DNA of 64,000 nt from an uncultured virus (IMG/VR IMGVR_UViG_3300025770_000897). Its lineage: Duplodnaviria; Heunggongvirae; Uroviricota; Caudoviricetes. A program made the translations under genes and the position numbers. Each line of letters begins with the position of its first letter. Position 1 is the stretch's first letter. The DNA lies in IMG/VR virus record IMGVR_UViG_3300025770_000897; one strand, given 5' to 3'. The notes under the pieces are model-generated. The model was not told where the DNA came from. It worked only from the letters and a program-made list of their open reading frames with translations, and made no database searches. Of the stretch, positions 1,974-60,674 are shown in pieces.

Positions 1974-3686
<1,713 letters not shown>

Positions 3687-10283: not shown

Positions 10284-10319
10284 GGATGTTTTAAGTAGGT
10301 GCGCCAACCTAACAACAAC

Positions 10320-11519
10320 ATGGCACAGATGCTGTTATTTACAGGAAAAGGTGGCGTAGGCAAATCTACTGTCTCGGCTGCTACGGCTTTGCACCACGCT
10401 CATTCAGGGCTACGAACACTTTTAGTTTCTTCGGACCCAGCCCATAGCACCGATGATACTCTCGGCATCCGAGTCGGATTCGAGCCAACCCCAGTAACAG
10501 GTGTTCCTAACTTGTGGGCTAAAAATCTTAATGCCGAAGAACTCGCCGGCGATTTTTTTGGTCAAATTGAAACTCTCATGGATAAATCTTTCGGAAGCCT
10601 CCCCGGTTTTGATTCGTCTATGTTATCCGAACTTTCTAAGTTTCCGGGCATGGATGAAGCCTTTGCTTTAGAAGAAATTAACCGATTGTGTTCAGGCACA
10701 GATTATGACTTAATCGTTTTCGATACAGCACCCACAGGACACACCTTGAAAGCCCTTTCTGCACCAGATTATCTCAATACATTCCTTCTTAAGATTCTTC
10801 GTATGAAAGCCAAGATTGAAAATCTCAAAGGTTTCTTTATCAAAAAAGGAGATACCTCTAAATTGGTGGCTCTAATGGAAGACTTCATCAAGCGTATTGA
10901 ACGACTCAAAGCGTTGCTGCGTAATCCTGAATACGTTAGCATCAATTTGGTTTCTATTCCAACCGAAGCGGGTTATGCTGAGTGCGCTCGAACTGTCCGA
11001 TTCATGGACAGCATGAATATCCCAGTAAATCACATTATTATCAATCAAATTATCCCAAACTTTGGAGAGGATGTTTGGGCTACTGCGGCGAATAATCCTG
11101 CCGCAGCCTTGCTCCATAACGAATGGTTGATTCAACAGCCATATCTTGAAAAGTTTCGGACACTTTCATCCGAAACATCTATCCGAATCGTAGGAATGAC
11201 TCGATTACCATTTGAACCTCGTGGTTCACGACTCACCGAAGTTGCAGAAACTCTCTGGAATGAAAGGGGACTTCGTTTTGAAACTTTTGAATCATTCAAC
11301 ATTTCTGAATCCGAAGGCAAAGCCGTTATTCGCACAGCGTATATCACTTCCGCTAAATGGAGTCGAAACAATCGAGAGTTTTATTATGGTGGTTCAGATG
11401 CCTCAGTTGGTAATTTTGTTTATGAACTTTCGGATTTACCCGATGTCAAGATTTCACGTCGCAAGCAACTGGGCAACGTAGTTTTGACTTGGAAGCCAGA
11501 GGCGGATTCGGATGATTGA
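10320..11519 (+). CDS. ArsA/Get3 (TRC40)-family ATPase, single domain with C-terminal extension
   Basis: TGKGGVGKST P-loop, SSDPAHS switch I, PGMDEAF, DTAPTGHT switch II; start 30 nt after TATA at 10290. Confidence 0.92.
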   Translation: MAQMLLFTGKGGVGKSTVSAATALHHAHSGLRTLLVSSDPAHSTDDTLGIRVGFEPTPVTGVPNLWAKNLNAEELAGDFFGQIETLMDKSFGSLPGFDSSMLSELSKFPGMDEAFALEEINRLCSGTDYDLIVFDTAPTGHTLKALSAPDYLNTFLLKILRMKAKIENLKGFFIKKGDTSKLVALMEDFIKRIERLKALLRNPEYVSINLVSIPTEAGYAECARTVRFMDSMNIPVNHIIINQIIPNFGEDVWATAANNPAAALLHNEWLIQQPYLEKFRTLSSETSIRIVGMTRLPFEPRGSRLTEVAETLWNERGLRFETFESFNISESEGKAVIRTAYITSAKWSRNNREFYYGGSDASVGNFVYELSDLPDVKISRRKQLGNVVLTWKPEADSDD

Positions 11520-11679
11520 TTGGGAATGGGCTTTGTTAGTTTTGTTGGCTTGTGTTGTAGCCTTACAAGGCACACTTAGCATTTATTTTGTTCGCTGGGT
11601 GTTATGGCGTAACAAATTGCTGACAGAATTGGCTGTTTGGAAGTATCGTTTCAATAAAGATACAGACTCTGAAGAATGA
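11512..11679 (+). CDS. 55-aa single-pass membrane protein overlapping the Get3-like stop
   Basis: Hand translation MIDWEWALLVLLACVVALQGTLSIYFVRWVLWRNKLL...DSEE; not in the ORF track. Confidence 0.6.
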   Translation: MIDWEWALLVLLACVVALQGTLSIYFVRWVLWRNKLLTELAVWKYRFNKDTDSEE

Positions 11680-11714: not shown

Positions 11715-12569
11715 ATGGCACAAGCGCAAGTAATTGGTATTTTGGGTGCAGTAGTCGCAGGTGGATTGGCTTATTGGAAGTTCAAGCCCGACAACTCAGA
11801 AGAAACTGAAACCACAGTTGTAACTCCTACGACTCCAACAGTCACACCAACTGAAACCAAACCTCTCGACAACTTCACTAAGAAAACAGGTTCACTTTAT
11901 CCAGCGATGGGGTCCAGCAATCTTTATCGAGGCACAAAACCCGACGAACCCAGAGCCGCTTACAAAACAGTGGAAGAGGCTGCTGCTCAATGTGATTCGG
12001 ATGAAAACTGTATTGGATTCACCCATTGGCCTGAAAGATATACTACTGACCACCCTAAATCACCAGAAACACCTTGTTCTACTGACACAAACTGTGGCTC
12101 AGGCAAGTGCGTAAATAACTACTGCCGAAGTTTCAACTGGGGACTTTCTTACTTCTGGACAGATAGTTCTGCTCCGAATCTTCCCAGCGACTACAAAGGT
12201 AGCACATGGAAGTCAGCCAACGGCTCACTTTCACTTTCTCAAGGTGTCGGACCCTCCCATGAATATCTTGATTCACGCCGACCTCGTGGAGAAGCCGCTA
12301 ACCATCTTGAAGGAGATGTTGAAAAGGACTGGAAGTATGCACAACACATGAGTCAAAAGGGTGTTTCTTACATCAAGGCTGGCTTTGAAGATTTCAAATA
12401 CTCGGATAAGTTCAACGATGACGGCACAGCCAAGACTTCAGAATCCGATAATCAAACTAACGAGGCTGAAGAAGTCTCCGCACCTGTGGAATACACACCT
12501 TTGTCGTATCAACCAGCCAGTAATTCGATTCAGTTTGACCCTAAGTCTCGCCCCGATAATTGCTTTTAA
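11715..12569 (+). CDS. N-anchored membrane protein with PAN/apple-like and small disulfide-knot motifs
   Basis: N-terminal TM, T/P linker, AAAQCDSDENCIGFT, CSTDTNCGSGKCVNNYC; TATA at 11685. Confidence 0.75.
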   Translation: MAQAQVIGILGAVVAGGLAYWKFKPDNSEETETTVVTPTTPTVTPTETKPLDNFTKKTGSLYPAMGSSNLYRGTKPDEPRAAYKTVEEAAAQCDSDENCIGFTHWPERYTTDHPKSPETPCSTDTNCGSGKCVNNYCRSFNWGLSYFWTDSSAPNLPSDYKGSTWKSANGSLSLSQGVGPSHEYLDSRRPRGEAANHLEGDVEKDWKYAQHMSQKGVSYIKAGFEDFKYSDKFNDDGTAKTSESDNQTNEAEEVSAPVEYTPLSYQPASNSIQFDPKSRPDNCF

Positions 12570-23393: not shown

Positions 23394-23428
23394 GAAGTTT
23401 TAAGTATCGGAAACCCCTAATGTCAATT

Positions 23429-28737: not shown

Positions 28738-28774
28738 GCAAGGTTTTAAGTAGTCGTGCAACGAAGTGTTTGAC

Positions 28775-30034
28775 ATGGATGCTCCTGTTGCCTCATCACC
28801 TGCACGTCAGGCTGAAGCGTTTCCAACACCTTCCGAGATTTGTCTGGGACGTAAATTGAGATTTCCCGCCTACGGAGAAGACAGTTTAATTTCAAATGTT
28901 TTGTTTATCACTGGTAAGCGTGGCTCAGGAAAGTCATTTACTGCTGGTGTAATGATGGAAGAGTTTCACCGACTTGGACTTCAGTTCGTTTGTTTCGATG
29001 CTCTCGATGCTCACGGTGGCTTAGACCAAATGCCCCGTGTAGAATCCATCAAACCCGAAGAAGGTCAAAGTATTGACATGAAAAGTCTGGTTCAAAGATT
29101 GAAAACTACTGACAAGTCTTTGGTTATTAAAATGGGTGGTCTTAGCCTTACCAAACAACAAGAAATTATTGGAGACTATTGTGAAGCACTTATTGAGGCT
29201 CGTATTAACAAAGGATTGCACACAATTTTTGAAGAGTGTCAAGATTTTATTCCCCAAGTTGGCCGACCGATTTCGTTTGACCCCATCGTGCGATTGTGCA
29301 AACTGGGTCGTGCATTAGGATACGGTGCTACGCTGGTTTCGCAACGACCCGCAGGTGTGAACAAAGAAGCCTTATCACAGGCTTCAGTTTATCTGGTTCA
29401 CAACGTCATTAACAATCGAGACTTGAAAACTTTGGATGAACAATTAAGTTTCGGAACAGATAAACGACTCATTAAGAAAATCTTGAATGGTATTTCATCG
29501 GCTCGTAAAGGTGAATGTGTTGCTTACGCACCAGAGTTTTTCAGAGACCGAGGTTACATTGTAATTGATAAAATCCGTGGAGACCGTGTAACTGAACACA
29601 CTGGTAACAACATTGACGTTCAAAGTTTAATTGGTGGTAATGCAACACCCGAAAGTTCCGGCGAGTTATTTGATGCAAACAGCACACCAATGCCAGATGA
29701 TGCTATCGGTAGTATTTCTGATGCTGAAAGTTTCGCTCGACACAGTTCACCGCTTTCACCAGCAACTCCAATTCCAGCAGTTCCACCAGTTTCCTCAGTT
29801 TCCCCAGAGTTCTTAAATGAAATGAAATCCTATGATGATTGGGAGCCATCACTTCCGCATTTTGAATACGACCCTTATGATGCAGATTCGCTCGAAACTT
29901 CTTTAGAAGATTGGGAAACTTATGCCCCACCATCAGGTTCTAACAATCGTTGGGTGCCTGTGGCTGCTATCGGAGGCACGGCTTTGACTTCGGCATTACT
30001 GTTGGTCGTTATGCGTGGCCTACGGATTCGTTGA
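28775..30034 (+). CDS. HerA/FtsK-superfamily ATPase with C-terminal TM anchor (candidate genome-packaging ATPase)
   Basis: ITGKRGSGKS Walker A, IFEECQDF Walker B, LGRALG arginine finger, VSQRPA; C-terminal VAAIGGTALTSALLLVVMR; TATA at 28745. Confidence 0.85.
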   Translation: MDAPVASSPARQAEAFPTPSEICLGRKLRFPAYGEDSLISNVLFITGKRGSGKSFTAGVMMEEFHRLGLQFVCFDALDAHGGLDQMPRVESIKPEEGQSIDMKSLVQRLKTTDKSLVIKMGGLSLTKQQEIIGDYCEALIEARINKGLHTIFEECQDFIPQVGRPISFDPIVRLCKLGRALGYGATLVSQRPAGVNKEALSQASVYLVHNVINNRDLKTLDEQLSFGTDKRLIKKILNGISSARKGECVAYAPEFFRDRGYIVIDKIRGDRVTEHTGNNIDVQSLIGGNATPESSGELFDANSTPMPDDAIGSISDAESFARHSSPLSPATPIPAVPPVSSVSPEFLNEMKSYDDWEPSLPHFEYDPYDADSLETSLEDWETYAPPSGSNNRWVPVAAIGGTALTSALLLVVMRGLRIR

Positions 30035-30893: not shown

Positions 30894-31295
30894 ATGATGC
30901 AAGATTCAGGATTTAATGAACCATTGATTGAAGACCCGAACACTACTGTTGGTTCTTACCCGTGGGAAGGAAATTACGGAGCCACACGTTCCTATGATAC
31001 CACAAACATGAGCCACATGACTACTCCAGTTACTGCTATGGTTGCTCCTCAAAAGGAAGCCACAGACGAACAATTCGTCGGTGCGGGCAACGACCCAGAA
31101 GGTGCAGACGCTGGACAAAATGATGCTGGCGGAGATGCTGACGGAGAAAACTTCGGACAGGACCAAGGCGAACAAGACCGTATGGAATCTGAATACTACT
31201 CAGAAGGAATGTCCACTGGTGTTAAGTTTGGACTCGGTGCTACTGCTGTGGCATTGGGACTCTTCGGCATGGTCTATGTTCTTTCCAGTCAATGA
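30894..31295 (+). CDS. Tail-anchored acidic membrane protein
   Basis: C-terminal FGLGATAVALGLFGMVYVL; TATA at 30852. Confidence 0.75.
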   Translation: MMQDSGFNEPLIEDPNTTVGSYPWEGNYGATRSYDTTNMSHMTTPVTAMVAPQKEATDEQFVGAGNDPEGADAGQNDAGGDADGENFGQDQGEQDRMESEYYSEGMSTGVKFGLGATAVALGLFGMVYVLSSQ

Positions 31296-36697: not shown

Positions 36698-37543
36698 ATG
36701 CGTTGGTCTCAATTTGGTCTCGGAGCCGTTTTGGTCGGTGTCGCTGCCTTCTTCGGTAATGAAAAGTTTCGTAGCAAAGTAACTTCAGCCTTCAGTGCTG
36801 ATGGCATAACTCCAGCAAATCTGGAAGAGATGCACATTGAAAGTTCTGGTGTCACAATTGACCAAGTTCCAACTTCTTTAGCACAAGCCTTCCTCGGCTA
36901 TCAACAACTTCACCTACAAGGCACTAATTCTATTGCTAATGATTCACCATTTATGGATGGCCTTATTGATGCACAACCAGTTTATGTTAATCCCCACGAC
37001 CTCGGATATTCATTCCAACCCGCAGAACAAGGATTTTCTTCCGAGTATGTGGATGAAGTCGGACAAACCGCTTCTTCTATGAACACCACCAACAACGAGT
37101 TCATTACAGGACCCGGAATGCCTTACACCCAAACCCCTTCCCAAGACCCAGTTAGTCTCGACCCCAGCACTGGTGCAGGTGTCGGTATTACTTATGATGG
37201 AAGTCGTTTGCCAGTGGCTCGATTGGCTCCCGAAGTCAATAGTGATTTCCCTTATCTTGTTTCTATGGTTGATGCTCCGTTTTTGACTCCACCCACAGGA
37301 GAAGTTGGAGGCAACCGTATTGGAAGCGTATCTCGTAACAGCACAGATGATAACGTCAATGGCCGTCTCGGAGAAGTTGCCCTCAGCCCAGATGTTGATT
37401 CCTCTTATCTTGATACTTCTACTGGTCGCACCCTACCACTAAGTCAATGGCGAAGCACCCACACAATCCTCCGTATTTCTGATACTATGGTATCAGCAAT
37501 TCCTTTTAGCGGAGGCTTTGAAACACAACTAAGGAGAGTATGA
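36698..37543 (+). CDS. N-anchored membrane protein
   Basis: ATG 30 nt after TATA at 36668; TM FGLGAVLVGVAAFFG, then FSAD. Confidence 0.8.
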   Translation: MRWSQFGLGAVLVGVAAFFGNEKFRSKVTSAFSADGITPANLEEMHIESSGVTIDQVPTSLAQAFLGYQQLHLQGTNSIANDSPFMDGLIDAQPVYVNPHDLGYSFQPAEQGFSSEYVDEVGQTASSMNTTNNEFITGPGMPYTQTPSQDPVSLDPSTGAGVGITYDGSRLPVARLAPEVNSDFPYLVSMVDAPFLTPPTGEVGGNRIGSVSRNSTDDNVNGRLGEVALSPDVDSSYLDTSTGRTLPLSQWRSTHTILRISDTMVSAIPFSGGFETQLRRV

Positions 37544-40092
37544 AAATGACTAAAATGCTATTTATTCAATCTGAAGATTACTGGGGATATGATGCTTCCT
37601 CATTCGATGATACCATTAACTTTTACAAGTTTGCTTGGACTGTCCCACTCGCACAATACATGGAGATGAGTGAAGAAGACCAAAAACGTTTGTATCCTTG
37701 TGCGCTCTTTTATGTTGCAGGTGTTACCGACAATCACAATTTCTTGACTCTTAAGATTATTCAAGACAGCACCGAAGCCAAAGTTTCAGGAATGGAAGGC
37801 ACTAAGCGTCGAACACGTCGTTATCAAATCGGTTCAAATGCTCAGTATTCCGTCGGCAGTTATGCACTTCAAGCCGCACCCGCTTCCGCTACTAACATTA
37901 TGGAAATTAAAGAAGCCGTTGAAGCCGGTAGCACTTCTGAAGGAAGTTTCCTTGTTTCAGGATTCCTTGATGATGCTGCAAGCGTGGCTAAACAAGTGAA
38001 CTACGAACCCGCAGAAAAATCTGCTGAATCCGTAGGATTTGCTGCACCAGCCACCGAACCATCAGGCTCGGCTTACGAACCTGCTGACCCCACAGTAGCC
38101 AACCCATCTACCGAAGGACCCTCAGAATCAGAACTCATTACTATGTCTGCTGAAATTGAATACGCAGAATTGGGTGACGAGTCATACCCTATTGTTCCTA
38201 ACACCACAGGGCAAGATTCTTCCTTTAGTGGTCATGGAGTTCCACAATGGTATGGTGCCGAAAGTTCTGGCTCCATCAGAGCATACGCTGACATTGATTA
38301 TTCATGGGACTCAGACCCAGACCCACATAAACATGAAGACCAACTGGATGAAAGTGACATCAGTGGTATGATTGAAGAACTTGTTCAAGAAGAAGTAGAT
38401 TCTGGTAACACTTCTGGAAGCGGTTACACTTCAACTGAAGTAGGTTTTGAGGGTCCCGGTAAAGACGATTACTCTTATGAAGACGTAGATATTCATTATC
38501 GGTGGGGTGCTGAAGGCTTTGGTGCAGAAGGCGAGGGCGATATTAGCCACTCCCGTATAGACGAAGAAGAAGACCAACCAGTTATTCTCCGATACGACAA
38601 TGCAACAACTTTTTACGAATGGAAAATTGTCGGACCTGTAACTTATGACGAAGAATATGAGATTGAAGAGAAAATCGAAGGCGAACTCGGAGACTCACCA
38701 GAACGAGGACAAACCGACTTTGAGTTCACACTCGATGAGGATGGCCGAGAAGTTAATGTAGATACAGATACAGATTATGGCGAAGGTCGTTTTTATGGTC
38801 TGGCTGCTGAAGCCGAGGTATCCATAGAAATTGAAGACGAAGATGGTGGTTATCAATGTGGCAAGTGTTACACTGGCTTTGAAGATAAATCTCAGGCAGA
38901 TAATTGTTGTTCTGCTTGTTATGAGTGTGGTTATTCTGCTCATGTAGGCTTTGAACGAGCGCAAAAGTGCTGTGCTTGTGATTGTGATGAAACTGGTGGC
39001 GGACCTAATGGAACTTGCCAACAAATGTTCTCTGCTGAAGGCGGTCGCCTCCGAGACATCCGTGGTAAGTTTATGAACCGTGGTAAAGCCAAGAATGCAG
39101 TTTTCGGTGAAGTTATGTCTCAACAAATGGGCGGATATTACCGCACAGGCATTGTCGGAGATAACCCACCAGTCGGTCAAGATATTTCTCGACGCAACCC
39201 CGTAGCCAAAGCCAAATACTTTGTGCAACCCGGTGTTCAAAACGACAACACAGGAGCATGGTCTAAAGGACCCAACTTCCAACAAGCCCGCAAGATTGCT
39301 AAAGGAGTAGCATGGGACACCGTTCAAGACATGGGACTCGCTGCTGAAACCTTCGCCAGCGAAACTTTCTGTGCTGATTGTGGCACTACCAAAAAATACC
39401 GTGGCGAACAAGAAGAAGGCGTGGAGTGTGGCGATTGTGGTCGCCCCGCAACCCATTCTGCCCGAGGTGGAACAGTCAATCGTTGTGACCGATGTTGGCC
39501 CGGTGATGGTTCTATGTCTGCTGAAATGGAATACGCTGAACTTGGAGAAGAACTTTACCCAGTTGTTCCTAACTCAGAAGGTGGCAACACCGCTTTGGAT
39601 TCAGGATACGGAGTTCCTCAATGGTATGGCTCGGCTGAAACTTTAAAACCATATTTTGAAAGAGATGATGCACCTGAAGAAGATTATGAGTTTTCTGAAC
39701 GAGGACCACAAATGCTTCGTGCTATTGCGCCCCAAGCAGGATTATATTTTGATTTTAGAGTTGATGAGTGGGAAGACGCTTCATGGGCCAACTTACCAGA
39801 CATGACCGAAGAAGAATATGATGCTTGTTATTTTGATTTCAAGAAAGGTGGTGTCTTTGACAGTTCAGATAATCTAATTGTTTCTATGGATGATTTCGCA
39901 GAGGCAATTTTCAACTACGACATTGTGAACATTGATGGTAACTATAATTGGTCTAAAGGAAACCTTGCCTCTCGTCAAGGCATTACTGATACTTTGGAAG
40001 AAGCCTCACCTACTAAGGGAGTTCTTGTAGCACCTGCTTTGGCTGCTATTGCTGGAATCTTAGGCGGTATTTTCTACGCACGTCGTTCTTAA
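37540..40092 (+). CDS. Tail-anchored mosaic polyprotein: acidic modules, Zn fingers, 2 GVPQWYG repeats, basic RDxxGKF module
   Basis: More than 10 xAE/xSE sites; CGKC/CYEC/CADC/CGDC; C-terminal TM ALAAIAGILGGIFYARRS. Confidence 0.8.
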   Translation: MKMTKMLFIQSEDYWGYDASSFDDTINFYKFAWTVPLAQYMEMSEEDQKRLYPCALFYVAGVTDNHNFLTLKIIQDSTEAKVSGMEGTKRRTRRYQIGSNAQYSVGSYALQAAPASATNIMEIKEAVEAGSTSEGSFLVSGFLDDAASVAKQVNYEPAEKSAESVGFAAPATEPSGSAYEPADPTVANPSTEGPSESELITMSAEIEYAELGDESYPIVPNTTGQDSSFSGHGVPQWYGAESSGSIRAYADIDYSWDSDPDPHKHEDQLDESDISGMIEELVQEEVDSGNTSGSGYTSTEVGFEGPGKDDYSYEDVDIHYRWGAEGFGAEGEGDISHSRIDEEEDQPVILRYDNATTFYEWKIVGPVTYDEEYEIEEKIEGELGDSPERGQTDFEFTLDEDGREVNVDTDTDYGEGRFYGLAAEAEVSIEIEDEDGGYQCGKCYTGFEDKSQADNCCSACYECGYSAHVGFERAQKCCACDCDETGGGPNGTCQQMFSAEGGRLRDIRGKFMNRGKAKNAVFGEVMSQQMGGYYRTGIVGDNPPVGQDISRRNPVAKAKYFVQPGVQNDNTGAWSKGPNFQQARKIAKGVAWDTVQDMGLAAETFASETFCADCGTTKKYRGEQEEGVECGDCGRPATHSARGGTVNRCDRCWPGDGSMSAEMEYAELGEELYPVVPNSEGGNTALDSGYGVPQWYGSAETLKPYFERDDAPEEDYEFSERGPQMLRAIAPQAGLYFDFRVDEWEDASWANLPDMTEEEYDACYFDFKKGGVFDSSDNLIVSMDDFAEAIFNYDIVNIDGNYNWSKGNLASRQGITDTLEEASPTKGVLVAPALAAIAGILGGIFYARRS

Positions 40093-40104
40093 GGAGATGA
40101 AATT

Positions 40105-40341
40105 ATGGTAACTAACTATCCTAAACTTTTCTTTGAACAAGAATCGAAACTAATTCACAAAGTAGGATATTCTGTGGCTCTTGCTATGATGACAATTGGT
40201 TTGGCTGAAACAGTTCACTCTATTCCTTACATGGTCAAAAAAGAATCCTCTCCTGTGGGTATTGTATTAGGACCTGCTGGAATTGCTGCCGGAAGTTTGG
40301 TGGCTTATCTTTATCTTCGTGAAGCCAAAGTGGTTTATTGA
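40105..40341 (+). CDS. Small two-TM membrane protein
   Basis: GGAG RBS; two hydrophobic helices. Confidence 0.7.
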   Translation: MVTNYPKLFFEQESKLIHKVGYSVALAMMTIGLAETVHSIPYMVKKESSPVGIVLGPAGIAAGSLVAYLYLREAKVVY

Positions 40342-40855: not shown

Positions 40856-40893
40856 AGCCAACCTTTAAGTATCAAAAGCGAACCATGTTCAGT

Positions 40894-41802
40894 ATGGATG
40901 ATGACGTTTCACCGTTCCTTTCGGAATTAGAATCTGAAGTTCAAACCGAAGCCGCAGGTAATCCAAATAACAAAATGGCTTTCAATGGTGAAGCCCCATC
41001 TAACTCAGTTGTTGAAACTGTGGAAGTCACTGATGAAGATTTGAAAAAGTATCTTACAGAAGGACAGCGTAATTCTTTACCAAAGGCTTTACAAGAAGGT
41101 ATTGCTCGCAAAAAGAAAATCTCTGAATCCGAAGAAGCCAATATGCCCAGTTTTGAAAACATGAGAAGCGAGTATGATAATCCAGAGACGATTCCCGAAG
41201 TTTCTGCTGATGAACCACTTCCAGAATCACCAGAAGAACTCACTCCTGAAACTGAGATTCCTCCAGAAGTTGCTGGACCTCCCGAAACTTTTGAACCCAA
41301 CTTGCCCGAACCTGCTGATGTTACACTTTTAGCAGAAAGGTTATCCAATCAAGACCAAGAAGTTCGTATTGCCAGTATGACTCAACGCCAATTTGAAGAT
41401 TGGTTGTTTCCAGAAGACGGTGAAAGTTCCGATTGGGCATCTGGTCAAGTTGCACTTGCTCGAATCTTAGCCAACCTCAAAGCGGCTGGTTACGATGCTA
41501 ATACTTTGACAATCGACGAAACTTTATTCCCACGTTACCTTCAAGTTGCTTCGGCTTTGTGGTCTCGACAGAATCTGGTAGAAACTGACCGTGAATCTGT
41601 ATTACTTAAATTAGAAAATGCTCCTGCATCTCAAATCGTTGCTATGCTTACTGCTACGGCAGATGCAATTCCTATTACAATGGCTGCTGAATTATTCAGC
41701 CCAGTTGAAGTTGAATCCGAACCTACAAATTATCTACCGTATGCTGCTGTGGGAATCACTACAATTGCCGCTATGCTTATACCCATGTTTTGGAAGAAGT
41801 AA
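40894..41802 (+). CDS. Tail-anchored acidic/Pro-rich protein
   Basis: C-terminal YAAVGITTIAAMLIPMFWKK; ATG 30 nt after TATA at 40864. Confidence 0.8.
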   Translation: MDDDVSPFLSELESEVQTEAAGNPNNKMAFNGEAPSNSVVETVEVTDEDLKKYLTEGQRNSLPKALQEGIARKKKISESEEANMPSFENMRSEYDNPETIPEVSADEPLPESPEELTPETEIPPEVAGPPETFEPNLPEPADVTLLAERLSNQDQEVRIASMTQRQFEDWLFPEDGESSDWASGQVALARILANLKAAGYDANTLTIDETLFPRYLQVASALWSRQNLVETDRESVLLKLENAPASQIVAMLTATADAIPITMAAELFSPVEVESEPTNYLPYAAVGITTIAAMLIPMFWKK

Positions 41803-43698: not shown

Positions 43699-43715
43699 AA
43701 TAAAAGGTGAAGAAA

Positions 43716-43967
43716 ATGATGAACAAACTTTGTAACTGGTCAGAATCTAAAAACGGACAATATGTAACTGGAATCGCTGCTCTTGTTGGCGGTTTGCACT
43801 TGATGGCAACTGAAGCACAACCAGTTCTCGGTTTCCTCCCTGCTTTTTCAGTCGATATTATGGGTCGCACCATTGGCGCACAACAACTTGTTGGTGCTGC
43901 TGTGGCCGTAACTGGACTTGGCGTTGTTCTTTGCCAACTCAATGGACCTTCAATGATGGGTCTTTAA
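43716..43967 (+). CDS. Small two-TM membrane protein
   Basis: GGTGA RBS; hairpin topology like 32217 and the N-terminus of 43995. Confidence 0.7.
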   Translation: MMNKLCNWSESKNGQYVTGIAALVGGLHLMATEAQPVLGFLPAFSVDIMGRTIGAQQLVGAAVAVTGLGVVLCQLNGPSMMGL

Positions 43968-47172: not shown

Positions 47173-47877
47173 GTGTGGGAAGAAAACTTAGCAGGGATGA
47201 CCATTCCTGAACTCAAAGAGTTACTGAAAAGACATGATTTGGTTCCGTCTGGAACACGACAACAAATGATTTCCAGATTATCAATCTCTCTTTGGAGAGG
47301 TGAATTATTGAAGTATGAATCTTTTGAAAAAATGACTGTTCCTGAACTCAAGGAACTTCTCAAGGCTGATGGAAAATCATTTGCTGGAAAGAAAAAAGAG
47401 TTAATTGAAAGAGTTGTCGGATTAACTAAAAAAGAAATCTTAGGAGGGATTGGTAAGTATGTGTATGATGCTGTGCCTTTAGCACTTATGCCCTCAATCA
47501 ATTTTCACCTTCGAGATTACGGTATCAACGCCAATGACCCCAATAAAACCCTCATAGGACTTACTAAACTGGGTGGGAAAGACCTCAAAAGACTGTTTCA
47601 GCAATTAGTCGTTTCCGTTCATACTCCTTTCATAGACGAAAATGATGCGAAGTATATTAGTTCTACGACTCAAAAAACCCTACTTCGGATTATGAGTGTC
47701 GTTTATTTCGGTGATTGGATGGGATTTCCATCCACCTCGGATATGATGGCTTTTTTAGACTTAGAACTAAGACCTAATTTCATAATGAATTGGGTCAGCG
47801 AAGATTTTATCCAACTCATGCGCCGACAAGGACCCACGGCTCCCGGTGTCTTCACCCTTTTCAACCAATTTGAGTAG
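47173..47877 (+). CDS. Tandem SAP-domain DNA-binding protein
   Basis: MTIPELKELLKRHDLVPSGTRQQMISRL and MTVPELKELLKADGKSFAGKKKELIERV; TTTAAATA at 47143. Confidence 0.8.
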   Translation: MWEENLAGMTIPELKELLKRHDLVPSGTRQQMISRLSISLWRGELLKYESFEKMTVPELKELLKADGKSFAGKKKELIERVVGLTKKEILGGIGKYVYDAVPLALMPSINFHLRDYGINANDPNKTLIGLTKLGGKDLKRLFQQLVVSVHTPFIDENDAKYISSTTQKTLLRIMSVVYFGDWMGFPSTSDMMAFLDLELRPNFIMNWVSEDFIQLMRRQGPTAPGVFTLFNQFE

Positions 47878-47908: not shown

Positions 47909-48856
47909 ATGTTTGATGTCATCGTTGTGACTTACAAGGTTTCGCCAGAGTTCATTACTCGTTGTTTAGACAGCATTCTGTCTCAAACTTTCAGTGATTA
48001 TCATGTGTATATTTGTGACGGCACTCCTGAAGATTACGAAGGTTACTCAGACATTATGAAAACTTTCGATAATTACACCACAGATTCTCGTTTTACTTTA
48101 CTTCAACAAACAGGCCGTGGGGTTAGTCAAGCACGTAACCAAGCCATCGCTGCTGGAACTCGCCCTTACATCGCCACTTTAGACGGAGACGATTTGTGGT
48201 ATCCAGAGCATTTAGAATGGATGACTGAAGCCATTGAAACTACACAGTCTGAACAATTGCCTGTGGCTTTTTGGTGGGCAGGTGCTGACGCTGAAATCAA
48301 ATTACAATCTCTCAAATCAGATGAAGTTTATACCAAAATAGGTGTCATCGGTTGGTATCCTCAATGGCAGAAGGTTCAACCTGACGAAACTTTCTTCTTT
48401 TGTTTTGGTAATCCTCTGATGCCCAGCAATTCTGCAATTCTACGTTCTCGATATGAAGCCGTTAATGGCTATGATGAAACTCTTCAAATAGGTGAAGATA
48501 CAGATTTATTTATTCGCATGGCAGGAAATCCAATCAAATATGCGCCAAACTCTGATAACTTAGGAACTGAATTATTTTATGGACATCAAGTTGATGCCGT
48601 TTCAGGTTATCATGGCTGCGGACCGTGGCAAACAACCACAATGGGACATCAATCTTCTGCCGCCGATAATCGAAGTTTTAAAGAAGTTCAAGCCGAGTTT
48701 CAACGTCAAGCCGACTCACGCACCCTCAAGTCATATTGGTTTTCAGAATCTGACAGACCCTCATGGATTGATTCGGAGCGTTGGACTCTGCTCTGTGAAC
48801 TTGCATTCCAAAAATCTAACGATGTAGAAATACTAAAACTCAAGGCTGAAGTTTAA
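47909..48856 (+). CDS. Glycosyltransferase family 2
   Basis: VIVVTY, CLDSILSQTF, GVSQARNQAI, LDGDD, GEDTDL. Confidence 0.9.
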   Translation: MFDVIVVTYKVSPEFITRCLDSILSQTFSDYHVYICDGTPEDYEGYSDIMKTFDNYTTDSRFTLLQQTGRGVSQARNQAIAAGTRPYIATLDGDDLWYPEHLEWMTEAIETTQSEQLPVAFWWAGADAEIKLQSLKSDEVYTKIGVIGWYPQWQKVQPDETFFFCFGNPLMPSNSAILRSRYEAVNGYDETLQIGEDTDLFIRMAGNPIKYAPNSDNLGTELFYGHQVDAVSGYHGCGPWQTTTMGHQSSAADNRSFKEVQAEFQRQADSRTLKSYWFSESDRPSWIDSERWTLLCELAFQKSNDVEILKLKAEV

Positions 48857-48881
48857 GTTGGTGATTTACCTTACAATGTTC

Positions 48882-50252
48882 ATGGCAGTTAATGAACTAC
48901 GAATCGAAACACCAATTGGACCCATCACCGCACCATTAGAAGCCCTTAGTGAATCTTTGAGTTATTTGGCTAATCAAGTTCGTAAAACGGATAAAGCAGA
49001 CCAGTCTATTGAAAAGTTCCTAAGTCTGGGACAAGATTCCGAAACCTATTCCATTGAATCCAAGCGTAAGTTTTACATTGACCGTTCTTATGTTTTCTGG
49101 ATGGAAGCCTTGTTGGGAGTCATTGATTCTGAATGGGAAATTACCAAAGTTGAAAACTACAACCACGGTGAAAATAAAACTGCTCCCGTTTGGTTTGACG
49201 AAAAAGTTGGAAACCGAGTTATCAAAGTTCCTCACAAACTCATTATGTTTGTTCAAAACAAAACCACTCCCGAAAACCGTTTTGTGATTTCCTTTACTCC
49301 TTACGATGAATACGAAGTAGATGTTGTTACACAGTTCCGTAGCGACCAATTCGATTACACCGAGTTCCACGCTAAAATGGAAACTTATTTCTTTGAGCAA
49401 GGTTCGCTTCGTGGAGCGCATTTTGACGCTTCTTACAAGTTTTTGGAAACGCCTCAAGTGGATTGGGATGCAATCATCATCAAAAATGAAGACCGCCACG
49501 TTCTGGACCGAAACTTAACCCGATTTATTGAATCAGTTCCGTTGTTCCAAGACAAAGGATTACGCAGTAGTCGAGGCGTTCTTTTGACGGGTCCACCCGG
49601 AACAGGCAAAACCCTAACTTGTAAAGTTCTGATTAACCAATTGGATGCTACTGTTATCTATGTAGCCCGTGATTCCATCTCCGATGTGGGACAAATTACT
49701 TCGCTTTACAAAGTAGCCCGCCGTTTGTCGCCTTGTGTGGTTATTCTGGAAGATATTGATACCCTCGGTGGACTTTCTCGTGAAGATGCAGACCATCCAG
49801 TTCTCGGAGAGTTCTTAAACTGTTTAGCAGGTGTTGAAGACAACCACGGTGTTGTTACTTTAGCAACCACTAACCACCCAGAAAAGTTGGATTGGGCTTT
49901 AACAGACCGACCCGGCCGTTTTGATGTTCGCTTAGACTTTGGCTATCCTGACGAAACCCTTCGTGAAAGTATTTTGTCTAAGTATCTGTCACCGTTCAAA
50001 ACAGGTAAAATCAACTTGACTCGTATTGCTAAAGATACCAATAAGTTTTCAGGTGCTTATCTACAAGAAATCATTCAATCTGCCTTCATGTTGGCTCACG
50101 AAGAATGTGATTACTGTCACGAACCAGTAATCATGCAAAGTCACCTTGACATGGCTCTATCTCACATCAAGTCTCAGCGTGAAATTGTAGGCCGTGAAAA
50201 GAATCTTTCGTATGCCAGCAACGAAAAAGGGTCTTATGACTTGTATGGTTGA
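48882..50252 (+). CDS. Classical-clade AAA ATPase (single AAA domain)
   Basis: GVLLTGPPGTGKT, VILEDID, TTNHPEKLDWALTDRPGRFD, FSGAYL; ATG 30 nt after TTTAAGTT at 48852. Confidence 0.9.
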   Translation: MAVNELRIETPIGPITAPLEALSESLSYLANQVRKTDKADQSIEKFLSLGQDSETYSIESKRKFYIDRSYVFWMEALLGVIDSEWEITKVENYNHGENKTAPVWFDEKVGNRVIKVPHKLIMFVQNKTTPENRFVISFTPYDEYEVDVVTQFRSDQFDYTEFHAKMETYFFEQGSLRGAHFDASYKFLETPQVDWDAIIIKNEDRHVLDRNLTRFIESVPLFQDKGLRSSRGVLLTGPPGTGKTLTCKVLINQLDATVIYVARDSISDVGQITSLYKVARRLSPCVVILEDIDTLGGLSREDADHPVLGEFLNCLAGVEDNHGVVTLATTNHPEKLDWALTDRPGRFDVRLDFGYPDETLRESILSKYLSPFKTGKINLTRIAKDTNKFSGAYLQEIIQSAFMLAHEECDYCHEPVIMQSHLDMALSHIKSQREIVGREKNLSYASNEKGSYDLYG

Positions 50253-50983: not shown

Positions 50984-52219
50984 ATGGGTGTCAAGACTCC
51001 TAAGTTTAACGGCCACGATAAGTGTGTTGAATGTGGTAGTATTGAAATACCCTTGAGTGAGATGGATGGAGGAGAAATCGGATTGTCGGACTACTACTTC
51101 TCATGTGCTGAATGTGATTTTTCATGGTATGTAGCAGTAAGGACTGATGAACATGAAGATGGGCCAAGTGCAGGTATTGAGTTTGTAGGATTTATGGATG
51201 AAGACGGGAATATACTCGCAGAAGCCCAAGAGTCTAAGTCCATGACTTCTGATTGTCTTCATTGTTCCGAAACAATTATACCTAATGAACCATATCTCTA
51301 TTGTAATGATTGTGGAGACCAAGCGCACTACGATTGTGGTGACGATAATGGATGGAGACAAATAGATGACGACATATTTTGTGAAGGTTGCTACGAATCA
51401 ATCATGGATGCTGCCTATTATCGAGGAGCCCCAGTCGTCATAGGCTTTGATGTTGATAAATTACAGGCTGAAACTTTCGAGGCTATGGGTTGGCATGACC
51501 CACGTTGGGCAGGAGACCGTGAGTCTGTTGAAGCCAAGTTCAAGGCTATGTATCCAACTTACAACATTGAAGAGGACTCAATAGATTATCTCGTTTATTC
51601 TGGTGGTAACAGCAACAAGTATCATGTATTCTTCCTTGCTACCGACCCTGCTGGCAATTATCACTCTTTCAATGCTTACGGTCGAATCGGTTACGCACCT
51701 ACTCTGCACCACAATGCAGGACCCGGAACAAAAGGTTCAGTTACTCAAGCCATCTCGAAAAAGCGACACGCAAAATCCAAGAAAGGATACGTCCAAATGG
51801 CCGAAGAGAACTTCGGACCAAAAAGATTCCGATTAAAAGTCAAACACAACATGGAAGATGGTTGGGAACACGTCGCAGATTTTGACGATGAAGAAGAAGC
51901 AACAAGTATGTATTATGACTTGTCTGAGGCCCGTCAAAGGAAACTCTCAAGAGTTCCCGAATTGAAATTACTTGAGGTTGATGACGACGGTAATGGTGAT
52001 GTTCTATACATACAAAGAAATGCTGCTGAAGAATCTTTTGCTTATCGAGTTCTTGATTCCTTTATCGGTGAACCAGAAGACTATGAAAAAATAGAATTGG
52101 CTAAACCAATTCGCACAGGCTGGTCTATTGGTGCTGGAATAACACTATTCTCTCTTACAGCAGGTATCTTCACACTTGCTGCTGCTAACCTCTTAGGTAG
52201 AAATAATGGTGATGAATAA
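50984..52219 (+). CDS. Tail-anchored mosaic protein: Zn fingers plus WGR-like domain
   Basis: CVEC/CAEC, CLHC/CNDC/CEGC; NSNKYH...YGRIG...KSKKGY; near-C-terminal TM; TATA at 50954. Confidence 0.8.
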   Translation: MGVKTPKFNGHDKCVECGSIEIPLSEMDGGEIGLSDYYFSCAECDFSWYVAVRTDEHEDGPSAGIEFVGFMDEDGNILAEAQESKSMTSDCLHCSETIIPNEPYLYCNDCGDQAHYDCGDDNGWRQIDDDIFCEGCYESIMDAAYYRGAPVVIGFDVDKLQAETFEAMGWHDPRWAGDRESVEAKFKAMYPTYNIEEDSIDYLVYSGGNSNKYHVFFLATDPAGNYHSFNAYGRIGYAPTLHHNAGPGTKGSVTQAISKKRHAKSKKGYVQMAEENFGPKRFRLKVKHNMEDGWEHVADFDDEEEATSMYYDLSEARQRKLSRVPELKLLEVDDDGNGDVLYIQRNAAEESFAYRVLDSFIGEPEDYEKIELAKPIRTGWSIGAGITLFSLTAGIFTLAAANLLGRNNGDE

Positions 52220-53189: not shown

Positions 53190-54407
53190 ATGACAGAAAA
53201 GTTTTACTGCGTAGGATGCAAACAACATTATGAACTTGAAGTTCATGCTGCACAACGACAACCCAGCAAAGGTGGAAGTTTCCGTCATTCGCTAATTTCC
53301 GAGTGTCCAAAAGGACATCGTGTCAATAAATTGTGCAAAAAAGAAAGGTATGAATCCCAACGTGCTTCTAAGAAAATGTCTGCTGAACGACGCTTCCCAC
53401 ATCCACCAACAACGAAGGAAAATTGGAAACCCGCTGAAGGAATCCGTCATAACAAATCTCTTCGCCCCGAAACTTTTGAGTCACCTTATGTTGGGTCCAA
53501 AGCCTTAAGCGATATTTCTGTAACAACTGACCAATTAACCGAAACTATTGGCTCAGGAGATTTCGACAAAGCCAGTTTGAACTCATCGGGACATCAAAAC
53601 ATCTTTGCTAACGCTGAAGAAGGCAACGCCCCTGTTCAAGACCCAATGGAGTTTGGAGAAATGGCTAACTGGACACCACTTGATGGCACACCTTCACTCA
53701 AGCGTCGTAAAGATGCCGAAGCAGGAAGTTTCCGTGATGGCACAGGCTGTATTTCTAAAGGTTCCTTCCCCAGTATGACTTGTGAACACTGTGGGTTTGA
53801 CCCACACGAACTCGTGTATTACCAATGTAAGCAGAACGATGAAGATTTAACCCGTGATGAATGGAAAGAACAATTGGAGTTTTACTTCTATGAAGGCTCA
53901 CACGGCGAACAGTGTCAAGGTCTTATTGATGAGAACAAAGAAGCAGAAGGCATGACTGTTGGAGTTAATTTGGAAGCCCTTGAACCAACTCCTGATGAAC
54001 CCGAAACTGGTGAATCAATGGTTCCTGCGGATAGTTTCATGCCCGAAGGTTCAGGACACGTTATTGGTTCTCAAAGCACCTCTCACAATTTCACGCCGTT
54101 CCATTCTGAAGACGAAGATGATTTTTATCAGAATGCCGAAACTTTCATCGCTTACCCAGAACTCAAAAACCATCTGGTTTCGATTATGCCAGACAAAGTG
54201 TATAACATCAATTTAATGGAAGACGGCGATTTTCAAATGAGTGTAGCCAATCGCTACATGGATGAAGTAATTTCTGCTGTCAGTGATTATCAAGCCACCG
54301 AAAAATCAGAGTCTGATTTCGTCTTTGGACAATCCAAAACTACTGTTGCAGTAGCGGCTGCAAGTTTGGCGGTTGTCGGAGCATGGCTTTGGAACAAAAG
54401 GAAGTGA
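53190..54407 (+). CDS. Tail-anchored mosaic protein with N-terminal zinc-ribbon (DUF5679-like) module
   Basis: FYCVGCK...ECPKGH; MSAE/NAE/DAE/EAE/HSE sites; C-terminal VAVAAASLAVVGAWLWNKRK. Confidence 0.8.
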   Translation: MTEKFYCVGCKQHYELEVHAAQRQPSKGGSFRHSLISECPKGHRVNKLCKKERYESQRASKKMSAERRFPHPPTTKENWKPAEGIRHNKSLRPETFESPYVGSKALSDISVTTDQLTETIGSGDFDKASLNSSGHQNIFANAEEGNAPVQDPMEFGEMANWTPLDGTPSLKRRKDAEAGSFRDGTGCISKGSFPSMTCEHCGFDPHELVYYQCKQNDEDLTRDEWKEQLEFYFYEGSHGEQCQGLIDENKEAEGMTVGVNLEALEPTPDEPETGESMVPADSFMPEGSGHVIGSQSTSHNFTPFHSEDEDDFYQNAETFIAYPELKNHLVSIMPDKVYNINLMEDGDFQMSVANRYMDEVISAVSDYQATEKSESDFVFGQSKTTVAVAAASLAVVGAWLWNKRK

Positions 54408-60011: not shown

Positions 60012-60674
60012 ATGGCATCAATCTACTCTGGCTCCGACGCTGGTAAATCTGGCTTAGAATTGGTGGAACTTGATGGTAGCCCTGATGTTCGAGGAGTTAC
60101 CAAAATCAAAGTTTCCAATACCACGCTCACGGATGATGGCAACGGCGAAGTTACCTTACAAACAGGCGGCGGTGGCGGTGGCGGTGGAACAGTTACCGAA
60201 GTAGCCACAGGAGTCGGATTACAAGGAGGCCCAATTACTACCACAGGAACTATTGCTCTTACCGATACCGCAGTTACACCGGGAGTTTATACCAACGCCA
60301 CAGTTACTGTAAATCAAAAAGGAAGGATAACTGCCGCTTCAAGTGGGACAGGAGGAGGTGTGACACTTTCAGGCAGCACCAACAATACCATTTCCACCGT
60401 CACAGGTGCTAACGCCCTACAAGGAGAAGCCAATTTAACTTTTGACGGCACACTTCTAACAGTTACAGGTAATTTGTCAGTCGGTGTCAATGCAGCCAGC
60501 ACTCTTGGATTTTATGGGGCTACTCCGACGGCTCGTATAACAATTGATGATATTACTGCTGCTCCACCCCCAGACCCCGGACAAGGTGGACAATTTGCTA
60601 CCGTAGATGCTTTGGTCGCTTGGGCTGCTACGGTTCAAGGGCTGATTACTACTATTGGACTCGGAAATGTATGA
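60012..60674 (+). CDS. Fibre/spike protein A1
   Basis: Poly-G hinge, GTVTEVATGVGLQGGPITTTGTI, YTNATVTVNQKGRITAAS, GEANLTFDG. Confidence 0.8.
   Translation: MASIYSGSDAGKSGLELVELDGSPDVRGVTKIKVSNTTLTDDGNGEVTLQTGGGGGGGGTVTEVATGVGLQGGPITTTGTIALTDTAVTPGVYTNATVTVNQKGRITAASSGTGGGVTLSGSTNNTISTVTGANALQGEANLTFDGTLLTVTGNLSVGVNAASTLGFYGATPTARITIDDITAAPPPDPGQGGQFATVDALVAWAATVQGLITTIGLGNV

Follow-up and report, generated by a model that had tools for sequence, protein, structure and literature searches.

Introduction

Get3/TRC40 is known as a cellular factor that delivers tail-anchored (TA) membrane proteins, and eukaryotic viruses are understood to borrow this host pathway for TA proteins of their own. 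Several groups of known ATPases come close to the protein reported here. The archaeal Get3/TRC40 proteins (structures 3zq6 and 3ug6) are single-domain ATPases. The arsenite ATPase ArsA (E. coli 1f48/1ihu, L. ferriphilum 9nbl) belongs to the same superfamily and shares the core fold; in ArsA two domains stand in tandem, cysteines bind the metalloid, and ArsB or Acr3 serves as partner. Get3d and the bacterial Get3 homologues with an alpha-crystallin domain (8elf, 3igf/8egk) combine the Get3 core and a region resembling the TRC40 insert with a C-terminal alpha-crystallin-type domain (available parts of PMC6593721 and PMC10248533). The available text of PMC6593721 describes this architecture for bacteria and plant plastids.

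Here we describe Get3v, a predicted Get3/TRC40-type ATPase of 399 residues. It is encoded on the + strand at positions 10320..11519 of a 64,000-nucleotide stretch of DNA from an uncultured virus (IMG/VR record IMGVR_UViG_3300025770_000897); this whole stretch is called the window below. Get3v shares with archaeal Get3/TRC40 the single ATPase domain, the same P-loop and switch I and II motifs, and a helical subdomain that aligns through helices 7–9. It differs from these proteins in several respects: the identity is about 30%, a beta-rich C-terminal domain of about 80 residues is added, the CxxC motif is absent, and the gene lies on a virus-like element next to an open reading frame (ORF) for a 55-aa membrane protein. 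The protein family and its mechanism are known; what is new is the carrier, the conserved partner and a set of putative clients that matches. From about 1.9 kb onwards the window runs collinearly with bases 59.6–123 kb of a longer IMG/VR record, G001 (166,176 bp), with 81–99% nucleotide identity in the aligned blocks. The distinct IMG/VR relatives number four, namely G001, G002 (160 kb), G003/G004 and G005, and their Get3 proteins are 95, 65, 52 and 54% identical to that of the window, respectively.

Domain structure of Get3v

The ORF spans 10299–11519, and its start was placed at the ATG at 10320 because homologues open with MAQM, MAYL or MASL. A preliminary description of this region, made from the DNA letters, had proposed a single-domain ArsA/Get3 ATPase, and the profile matches bear this out. 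PF02374 (ArsA_ATPase) matches residues 3–286 with E 1.2e-59 and 202.5 bits (cut-off 24.3), TIGR00345 (GET3_arsA_TRC40) scores 201.9 bits (cut-off 135), and only one ATPase domain is present in the 399 residues. The core occupies residues 1–316 and is followed by the beta-rich domain at about 317–392 and an acidic tail at the very end. Residues 9–16 (GKGGVGKS) form the deviant Walker A motif, or P-loop, residues 39–43 (DPAHS, within SSDPAHS) form switch I and residues 135–142 (DTAPTGHT) form switch II. All three motifs are invariant or nearly so among 77 aligned homologues. Which residue does what within them we take, as an assumption, from the Get3 literature.

The AlphaFold2 (AF2) model of Get3v, built from the 77-sequence alignment, has a pLDDT of 88.6 and a pTM of 0.88. 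It shows the NTPase core and a helical subdomain made of helices 72–91, 100–106, 111–125, 148–168 and 176–200. The last two of these follow DTAPTGHT, where a hydrophobic helical insert had been predicted, and are joined by a linker at residues 169–175 that is modelled with lower confidence (pLDDT 70–79). Extended helices 7 and 9, with a linker of the lid or TRC40-insert type between them, are thus present in the model. By sequence composition the five subdomain helices are 43–53% hydrophobic. The model places six beta strands within residues 326–390, in agreement with the beta-rich extension of about 80 residues that had been described. Cysteine occurs twice only, as C124 and C222, and the earlier remark that the protein has no CxxC was correct.

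Comparison with archaeal Get3 and ArsA

The best solved sequence relatives of Get3v are Chlamydomonas ArsA1 (5zme), which is a tandem TA-targeting factor, M. thermautotrophicus TRC40 (3zq6, E 1.4e-40) and M. jannaschii Get3 (3ug6, E 1.8e-39). E. coli ArsA matches at E 2.6e-28 over residues 4–156 only. The Get3d-type chains 8elf and 3igf match weakly, at E 9.7e-10 and 1.4e-7, over residues 1 to about 159 only. The HMMER alignment with M. thermautotrophicus Get3 runs continuously across helices 7–9, whereas those with E. coli ArsA and Get3d end near residue 156. Get3v keeps all of its ATPase motifs, unlike the Get3d of Nostoc, which is without a nucleotide site according to the available text of PMC6593721.

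The fold comparison gives the same order. Whole-model searches, which covered residues 1–316, ranked archaeal and diatom Get3 first in Foldseek. VIA gave Z scores of 26.0 for 3zq6, 25.7 for diatom Get3 8had, 24.4 for 3ug6 and 21.9 for E. coli ArsA 1ihu, and values for ArsA as a group were 21–22. The superposition on 3zq6 has an rmsd of 3.9 for 278 aligned residues and spans model residues 1–315.

In the maximum-likelihood tree of 135 rows, from which one row shorter than 230 aa was dropped, all 21 of the 21 viral-family rows fall into one clade (SH-aLRT 89). This clade and six of the eight shorter metagenome forms (316–338 aa) group together at 99, P0191 is added at the next node (99), and the eighth shorter form, P0262, falls next to the Poseidoniales clade together with a bacterial row. 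The viral family lies inside the single-domain archaeal-type group and is split from both halves of the two-domain bacterial ArsA at SH-aLRT 100. The phylogeny that had been suggested as a check thus places Get3v with archaeal-type Get3. Four of the metagenome proteins, P0099, P0109, P0119 and P0121, are of 316 aa, form a sister group of Get3v, and are without the C-terminal extension; they are 55–57% identical to the Get3v core, come from contigs of up to 146 kb, and may stem either from related viruses or from an unsampled host lineage.

The arsenite-pump equivalog TIGR04291 (arsen_driv_ArsA) gives Get3v only 105.8 bits against a cut-off of 650, and NF041417 gives 98.8 against 800. Neither ArsB (PF02040) nor Acr3/SBF (PF01758) was found in any of the five related viral records (0/5), in a search in which the positive-control genomes matched, or in the Pfam scans of the window. 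The tandem domains, metalloid-binding cysteines and pump partner of ArsA therefore have no counterpart that we could find for Get3v. On this sequence evidence Get3v is best classed as a Get3-type ATPase and the arsenite-pump reading is effectively excluded, as the preliminary description had argued.

C-terminal extension and the Get3 of Poseidoniales

The extension of Get3v comprises residues 317–399 (11268..11516, + strand) and is carried by 65 of the 77 aligned homologues. The cellular Get3 proteins of Poseidoniales are 387–422 aa long and have a C-terminal HSP20-like domain in the same position (L002, L007, L014, L026, L031 and others). ArsA_HSP20 (PF17886) was above the cut-off in one of the five cellular Poseidoniales proteins scanned and weak in two; in the four viral extensions scanned, neither PF17886 nor any other Pfam family matched (0/4).

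The relationship becomes visible with deep profiles. With hhalign, the profile of 65 viral extensions aligned with that of 11 Poseidoniales Get3 C-termini at a probability of 88.3% and E 2.9e-6, over 74 columns and in register. The controls were clean, with E 0.65 for the reversed profile and E 0.11 for the best of 20 column shuffles (0/20 below 0.1). A shallow profile of only five viral sequences fails (probability 1.3%, E 0.041). On the question whether the extension is alpha-crystallin-like the evidence is divided: the deep-profile alignment speaks for it, while Pfam and the shallow profile do not recover it. In the ESM Atlas the three nearest clusters of residues 316–399 are all ArsA_HSP20 (PF17886), with scores of 0.75–0.76, which we treat as a lead only. 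The extension folded alone from a five-sequence alignment reached a pLDDT of 49.6 and was unusable for a fold search. Given the HSP20-like domain that Poseidoniales Get3 carries in this position and the alignment of the deep profiles, the extension is probably a diverged HSP20/alpha-crystallin-like domain that was inherited with the gene and not a viral invention.

Poseidoniales also provide the best cellular Get3 matches, at 39% identity, among the matches listed in the GTDB scan. A cellular Get3 was found in 156 of 301 Poseidoniales genomes, with 36–42% identity to Get3v over residues 1 to about 260. No full-length Get3 of the viral type appeared among the matches listed for these 301 genomes; the same matches include eight partial rows that are 49–56% identical over the first 87–150 residues only. 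The cellular proteins have the same architecture as Get3v, a core and then a C-terminal beta domain. They differ from it in that the core identity is only about 40%, the insert after helix 4 is longer, the likeness of the C-terminal domains is seen only with deep profiles, and the two are not recovered as sisters in the tree. As an observation in its own right, Poseidoniales appear to have an alpha-crystallin-bearing Get3.

Tail-anchored proteins of the element

TA proteins were called by one rule, applied identically to all sequences. It asks for a single 19-residue Kyte-Doolittle window that scores at least 1.6, starts after residue 40 and ends within 25 residues of the C-terminus. The host control was 400 kb of one Poseidoniaceae genome, G007. 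By this rule TA proteins account for 6/75 ORFs in the window, 12/221 in G001, 14/201 in G002, 12/190 in G003 and 16/150 in G005, as against 1/331 in the host sample (Fisher p at most 2e-4; 2e-4 to 9e-6 for the window and G001–G003). They make up 5–7% of the ORFs in G001–G003 versus 0.3% in the host sample, and 23–30% of the predicted membrane proteins versus 1–2%. Other transmembrane (TM) topologies are found in 31 of the 221 ORFs of G001. With the threshold lowered to 1.4, the calls rise to 7 in the window, 14 in G001, 18 in G002, 16 in G003 and 19 in G005, versus three in the host, and these three host ORFs look spurious. In these comparisons Fisher p spans 5e-4 to 6e-6. The TA excess is not chance, and a TA-rich proteome that includes a packaging-type ATPase, as had been noticed in the window, extends to its relatives.

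The ATPase is encoded at 28766..30034 (+). It belongs to the HerA/FtsK superfamily (phrog_2666, E 2.1e-13, and DUF87/HerA matches) and is a putative genome-packaging or DNA-translocating enzyme. A core of about 290 aa is followed by a variable linker, a C-terminal TM segment that scores 2.06, and the tail MRGLRIR. Each of the 28 aligned homologues, the most distant at 52% identity, retains the C-terminal hydrophobic helix and the short basic tail. To our knowledge the packaging ATPases of known membrane-containing viruses are soluble, and a membrane-anchored one would be unusual.

Four further TA proteins are called at the strict threshold, all on the + strand: a 133-aa protein with the tail SSQ (30894..31295), an 850-aa protein with the tail YARRS (37540..40092), a 305-aa protein with the tail WKK (40885..41802) and a 411-aa protein with a WGR domain (PF05406, E 1.7e-5; 50984..52219). 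A 405-aa protein at 53190..54407 (+), whose C-terminal TM segment is rich in Ala and followed by the tail KRK, is called at the lenient threshold only (score 1.44), and its best match in G002 is not called TA. All six genes that the preliminary description had named are therefore recovered, two of them with starts that had been given as 28775 (for 28766) and 40894 (for 40885). C-terminal TM segments are also present in a 78-aa protein at 40105..40341 (+), whose G002 orthologue is TA, and in an 86-aa protein at 43707..43967 (+), whose G001 counterpart at 80349–80597 is called TA. The seventh lenient call in the window, at 60012, is doubtful.

TA topology is kept in orthologues at 27–69% identity. 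The orthologues of 28766, 30894, 37540, 40885 and 50984 are all TA in G002, and those of 28766, 40885 and 50984 are TA in G003 as well, where the orthologue of 37540 has a borderline C-terminal segment that is not called. Co-occurrence in relatives, another check that had been proposed, was seen in IMG/VR: each of the four distinct genomes there with the TA ATPase also has Get3. Relatives with as little as 52% Get3 identity still have Get3, the 55-aa ORF and the TA topology. From 273 relatives, 80 metagenome loci that bear the ATPase were kept; for 30 of them the contig extends 25 kb or more upstream of this gene. The Get3 and ATPase clusters show parallel identity tiers and have their longest contigs, of sizes 160505, 165532 and 70281, in common. 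A contig size of 88476 likewise ties a Get3 cluster member to an ATPase-bearing metagenome contig.

The 55-aa membrane protein and the next gene

The ORF for the 55-aa membrane protein lies at 11512..11679 (+), and its start overlaps the Get3v stop by 8 nt. The overlap had been pointed out before, and the four distinct related genomes are now seen to have the gene as well, always adjacent or close to Get3. A homologue is found directly 3' of Get3 in L001, L082 and L085; in G003 it is 2 kb downstream on the same strand (hmmsearch E 3e-17). The protein starts with a hydrophobic TM segment, which is followed by the basic amphipathic stretch YFV[RW]W.LWRNK.LT.L.V; the conserved part consists of the end of the hydrophobic segment and this stretch. 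It matches no Pfam family and no named Atlas cluster or neighbour. This ORF is a genuine gene, conserved and linked to Get3v. The distribution of charges points to an N-out, C-in topology. That the protein may act as a receptor for Get3v, as had been proposed, is a hypothesis.

Just downstream, at 11715–12569, is a gene for a 284-aa, N-terminally anchored, Cys-rich protein that is conserved in L001 and L082. This gene is covered in four of four marine RNA libraries, with contigs of 780–830 nt in two of them, and thus more fully than Get3v, on which short contigs were found in three of four marine metatranscriptome runs. DNA carry-over is possible for both, and the Get3v contigs were not counted as expression.

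Carrier element and host

G001 is linear with a 3.2-kb inverted terminal repeat. Its genes form two single-strand blocks, from about 0 to 59 kb on the + strand and from about 59 to 166 kb on the – strand, which converge near 59 kb. We take this layout to resemble that of Borg elements. G002 also ends in inverted terminal repeats according to IMG/VR, and 103 bp were measured here. Many marine metagenomes contribute to the protein clusters of the family, whose longest contigs repeatedly measure about 149–166 kb. G005 (L234–L240, 123.4 kb) carries the IMG/VR label provirus; ORFs with homologues in the other viral genomes account for 74 of its 150 and are spread from base 1 to about 120.3 kb, the GC content is flat at 0.39–0.42, and by homologue spread and GC no host flank is evident.

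Both subunits of DNA polymerase D (PolD) are encoded in G001, outside the part that matches the window. The DP2 gene (L103:14761-18348, +) matches three Pfam domains with E 1e-79 to 1e-104, and in the DP1 gene (L108:5645-7030, –) the domains are OB, DNA_pol_E_B and Metallophos. The five related viral records yielded no PolB. DP2 of G001 is 43–46% identical to Poseidoniales DP2 in long segments. The polymerase is described as exclusive to archaea in the abstracts available to us, and a literature search found no published report of a virus-encoded PolD. G001 also encodes TFB (L102:1914-2900), TBP (L108:8372-8935), PCNA (L107:9517-10314), an MCM-like ATPase (L103:3771-5489), a class II ribonucleotide reductase (L107:7134-9197) and four C5 DNA methyltransferases (L103:7168-9766 and L108:2377-3333), together with UvdE, Fpg, ERCC4, a Hjc-like resolvase, an ATP-dependent ligase and a dCMP deaminase. 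It thus brings basal transcription factors of the archaeal kind as well as a wide range of genes for replication, repair and nucleotide metabolism.

Judged by its replication and transcription genes, the element is archaeal, and since the genome encodes PolD, TFB, TBP and PCNA its host should be archaeal as well. The host probably belongs to Poseidoniales, for which the best cellular Get3 matches and the DP2 identity give moderate evidence. The name virus rests on the IMG/VR classification, the HerA/FtsK-type ATPase (phrog_2666) and the gene content. Published viruses of Poseidoniales are head-tailed, PolB-encoding magroviruses and related groups, as far as the available parts of PMC11706807 and PMC5434244 describe them. 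The present element looks like an abundant, undescribed lineage of marine archaeal viruses, distinct from magroviruses.

Several other genes may be mentioned. In G001, a 923-aa protein (L108:11894-14662, –) begins with a Cu/Zn superoxide dismutase domain (PF00080, E 1.5e-40), and the long region joined to it contains DUF5872. The window encodes a 570-aa protein in which bacterial TSP3 repeats are combined with a hydrophobic N-terminal segment (1974–3686), a 234-aa protein with two SAP domains (E 4.3e-17; 47173–47877), a family-2 glycosyltransferase (47909–48856) and a CDC48/FtsH/PAN-like AAA+ ATPase (PF00004, E 1.8e-23; 48858–50252). Runs of Asp, Glu and Ser end several window proteins (e.g. 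11516, 13231, 13830, 28734 and 32817). The excess of acidic C-terminal tails is weak, 5–9% versus 3.3% in the host with p 0.03–0.28; it is 7/75 versus 11/331 (p 0.03) for the window and not significant for G001. Matches of the 34811 ORF to neuroglobin are weak (best E 0.0046), look like chance and were rejected.

Proposed role of Get3v

From the family, fold, motifs, phylogenetic position, conservation and synteny of Get3v and from the TA enrichment of its carrier, we infer with moderate confidence that Get3v post-translationally captures the TM helices of the element's own TA proteins and delivers these proteins to a membrane. Get3v would be a catalytically competent archaeal-type Get3/TRC40 ATPase of a linear marine archaeal virus or virus-like element of about 166 kb. 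Its gene would be an old acquisition from an archaeal lineage of hosts, and the C-terminal HSP20-like domain known from the Get3 of Poseidoniales would have come with it. In an ATP-bound closed dimer or tetramer, the helical subdomain (residues ~72–125 and 148–200) would shield the C-terminal TM helix of newly made viral TA proteins. Its clients would include the HerA/FtsK-type ATPase, along with five or more further conserved proteins. After ATP hydrolysis Get3v would hand them to the membrane, docking either through a host insertase of the EMC3/Get1 family or through the 55-aa protein, whose cytosolic basic helix could tether Get3v. An EMC3/Get1-family insertase was found in five of five Poseidoniales genomes and was above the cut-off in none of the five viral records (0/5). 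A private copy of Get3 would supply chaperone capacity for a burst of TA synthesis, for which the host, with its rare TA proteins, would not be built.

The most extended form of this proposal is that a lineage of linear archaeal viruses of about 150–170 kb, with inverted terminal repeats and their own PolD, builds a TA-rich membrane, packaging ATPase included, by a self-encoded minimal GET pathway in which the 55-aa protein is a one-helix receptor. We offer it tentatively and consider it unlikely to hold as a whole.

Several observations weigh against TA delivery by a viral Get3v. The presumed host has a Get3 of its own, as the count in Poseidoniales indicates, and the need for a viral copy is not obvious. 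The helix 7–9 stretch of Get3v has only two methionines, M162 and M186. The TM predictor and ORF caller behind the TA counts are crude, and the host control is a single 400-kb sample. The tree comes from a quick LG+G4 search, and within it no placement of the sister of the viral clade among Poseidoniales, Asgard and Altiarchaeales sequences is supported. No capsid protein was matched by Pfam or PHROG among the window proteins, and there was no credible PDB sequence match for the ORFs at 23420, 27574 and 34811; a virion membrane was not identified either, and the element could be a non-viral linear replicon. The ATPase at 28766 has a weak match to NCBIfam CedD, an archaeal DNA-import ATPase (E 4.5e-6), and could serve in DNA transfer. 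The zinc-binding CxxC dimerisation motif was not found in the Get3v sequence. This last point is no argument against function, because archaeal Get3 homologues without CxxC can dimerise and bind TA proteins, and functional Get3s without it are reported in plants and archaea (available text of PMC6593721).

The same source, in the text available, also suggests that alpha-crystallin-bearing Get3 homologues may serve as general chaperones and not in TA targeting. Get3v could accordingly be a general ATP-regulated holdase whose core and HSP20-like domain keep viral proteins that tend to aggregate, whether membrane proteins or not, soluble, with no specific targeting of TA proteins. The probable HSP20/alpha-crystallin nature of its C-terminal domain fits such a role, as do the holdase activity of yeast Get3 (available text of PMC6593721) and the many membrane proteins of other topology in G001. 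A holdase leaves unexplained, however, why TA proteins take so much larger a share of the membrane proteins in the element than in the host, and why a small membrane partner gene is conserved. We consider a pure holdase rather unlikely, though it is the main rival reading, and the holdase and TA-targeting roles are not mutually exclusive.

A third possibility is that Get3v takes over or blocks the host GET pathway by competing for the insertase or for host TA clients. Both a Get3 and a Get1/EMC3-family insertase are available in the host as targets, and the divergence of Get3v from host Get3 (36–42% identity) is what one would expect of a specialised competitor. The catalytic motifs are nevertheless invariant in the viral family and the element itself is TA-rich, so that a productive role is the simpler fit, and we regard interference with the host as quite improbable.

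An auxiliary role of Get3v in arsenite or antimonite resistance is suggested by the label 'arsenite-transporting ATPase' that homologues carry in several sources, and 50,697 GenBank phage records hold seven partial ArsA-type genes (28–36% identity, at most 55% coverage) and no full-length match to Get3v; the single domain, the two cysteines, the low equivalog scores, the tree split and the missing ArsB and Acr3 leave this function almost no room. A ParA/MinD-type ATPase positioning the linear genome for segregation is just as improbable, since the secondary matches to ParA, CbiA and AAA_31 and to phrog_164 (ParA-like, E 6.8e-9) are weak and cover the shared P-loop region only, with 28–30 bits versus 202 for ArsA/Get3, and the Get3 fold extends over residues 1–316 with a helical subdomain that ParA does not have.

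Significance

No published report of an archaeal or giant virus that encodes Get3 or ArsA was found, although paper supplements, which lay outside the search, could list such genes. The word 'virus' has no occurrence in the available text of the Get3 survey PMC6593721, and ArsA, Get3 and PolD have none in the parts of PMC11706807 and PMC5434244 that were searched. The BFVD collection of predicted viral structures has no Get3-like fold among its best 50 matches to Get3v (best TM ≤0.35).

Get3v, a predicted TA-targeting ATPase, belongs to a natural compact system in which a single ATPase goes with a few conserved putative clients and, as candidate partner, the 55-aa protein. This system offers a means of testing the working and the docking site of archaeal Get3. 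It also points to a way in which cytosol-facing proteins, a DNA-translocating ATPase among them, could be loaded into a membrane by a large archaeal virus. The carrier matters in its own right, as what appears to be an abundant, undescribed group of marine archaeal viruses that encodes PolD. If the 55-aa protein is indeed the receptor of Get3v, it would be the smallest Get3 receptor known and would give a handle on the receptor of archaeal Get3.

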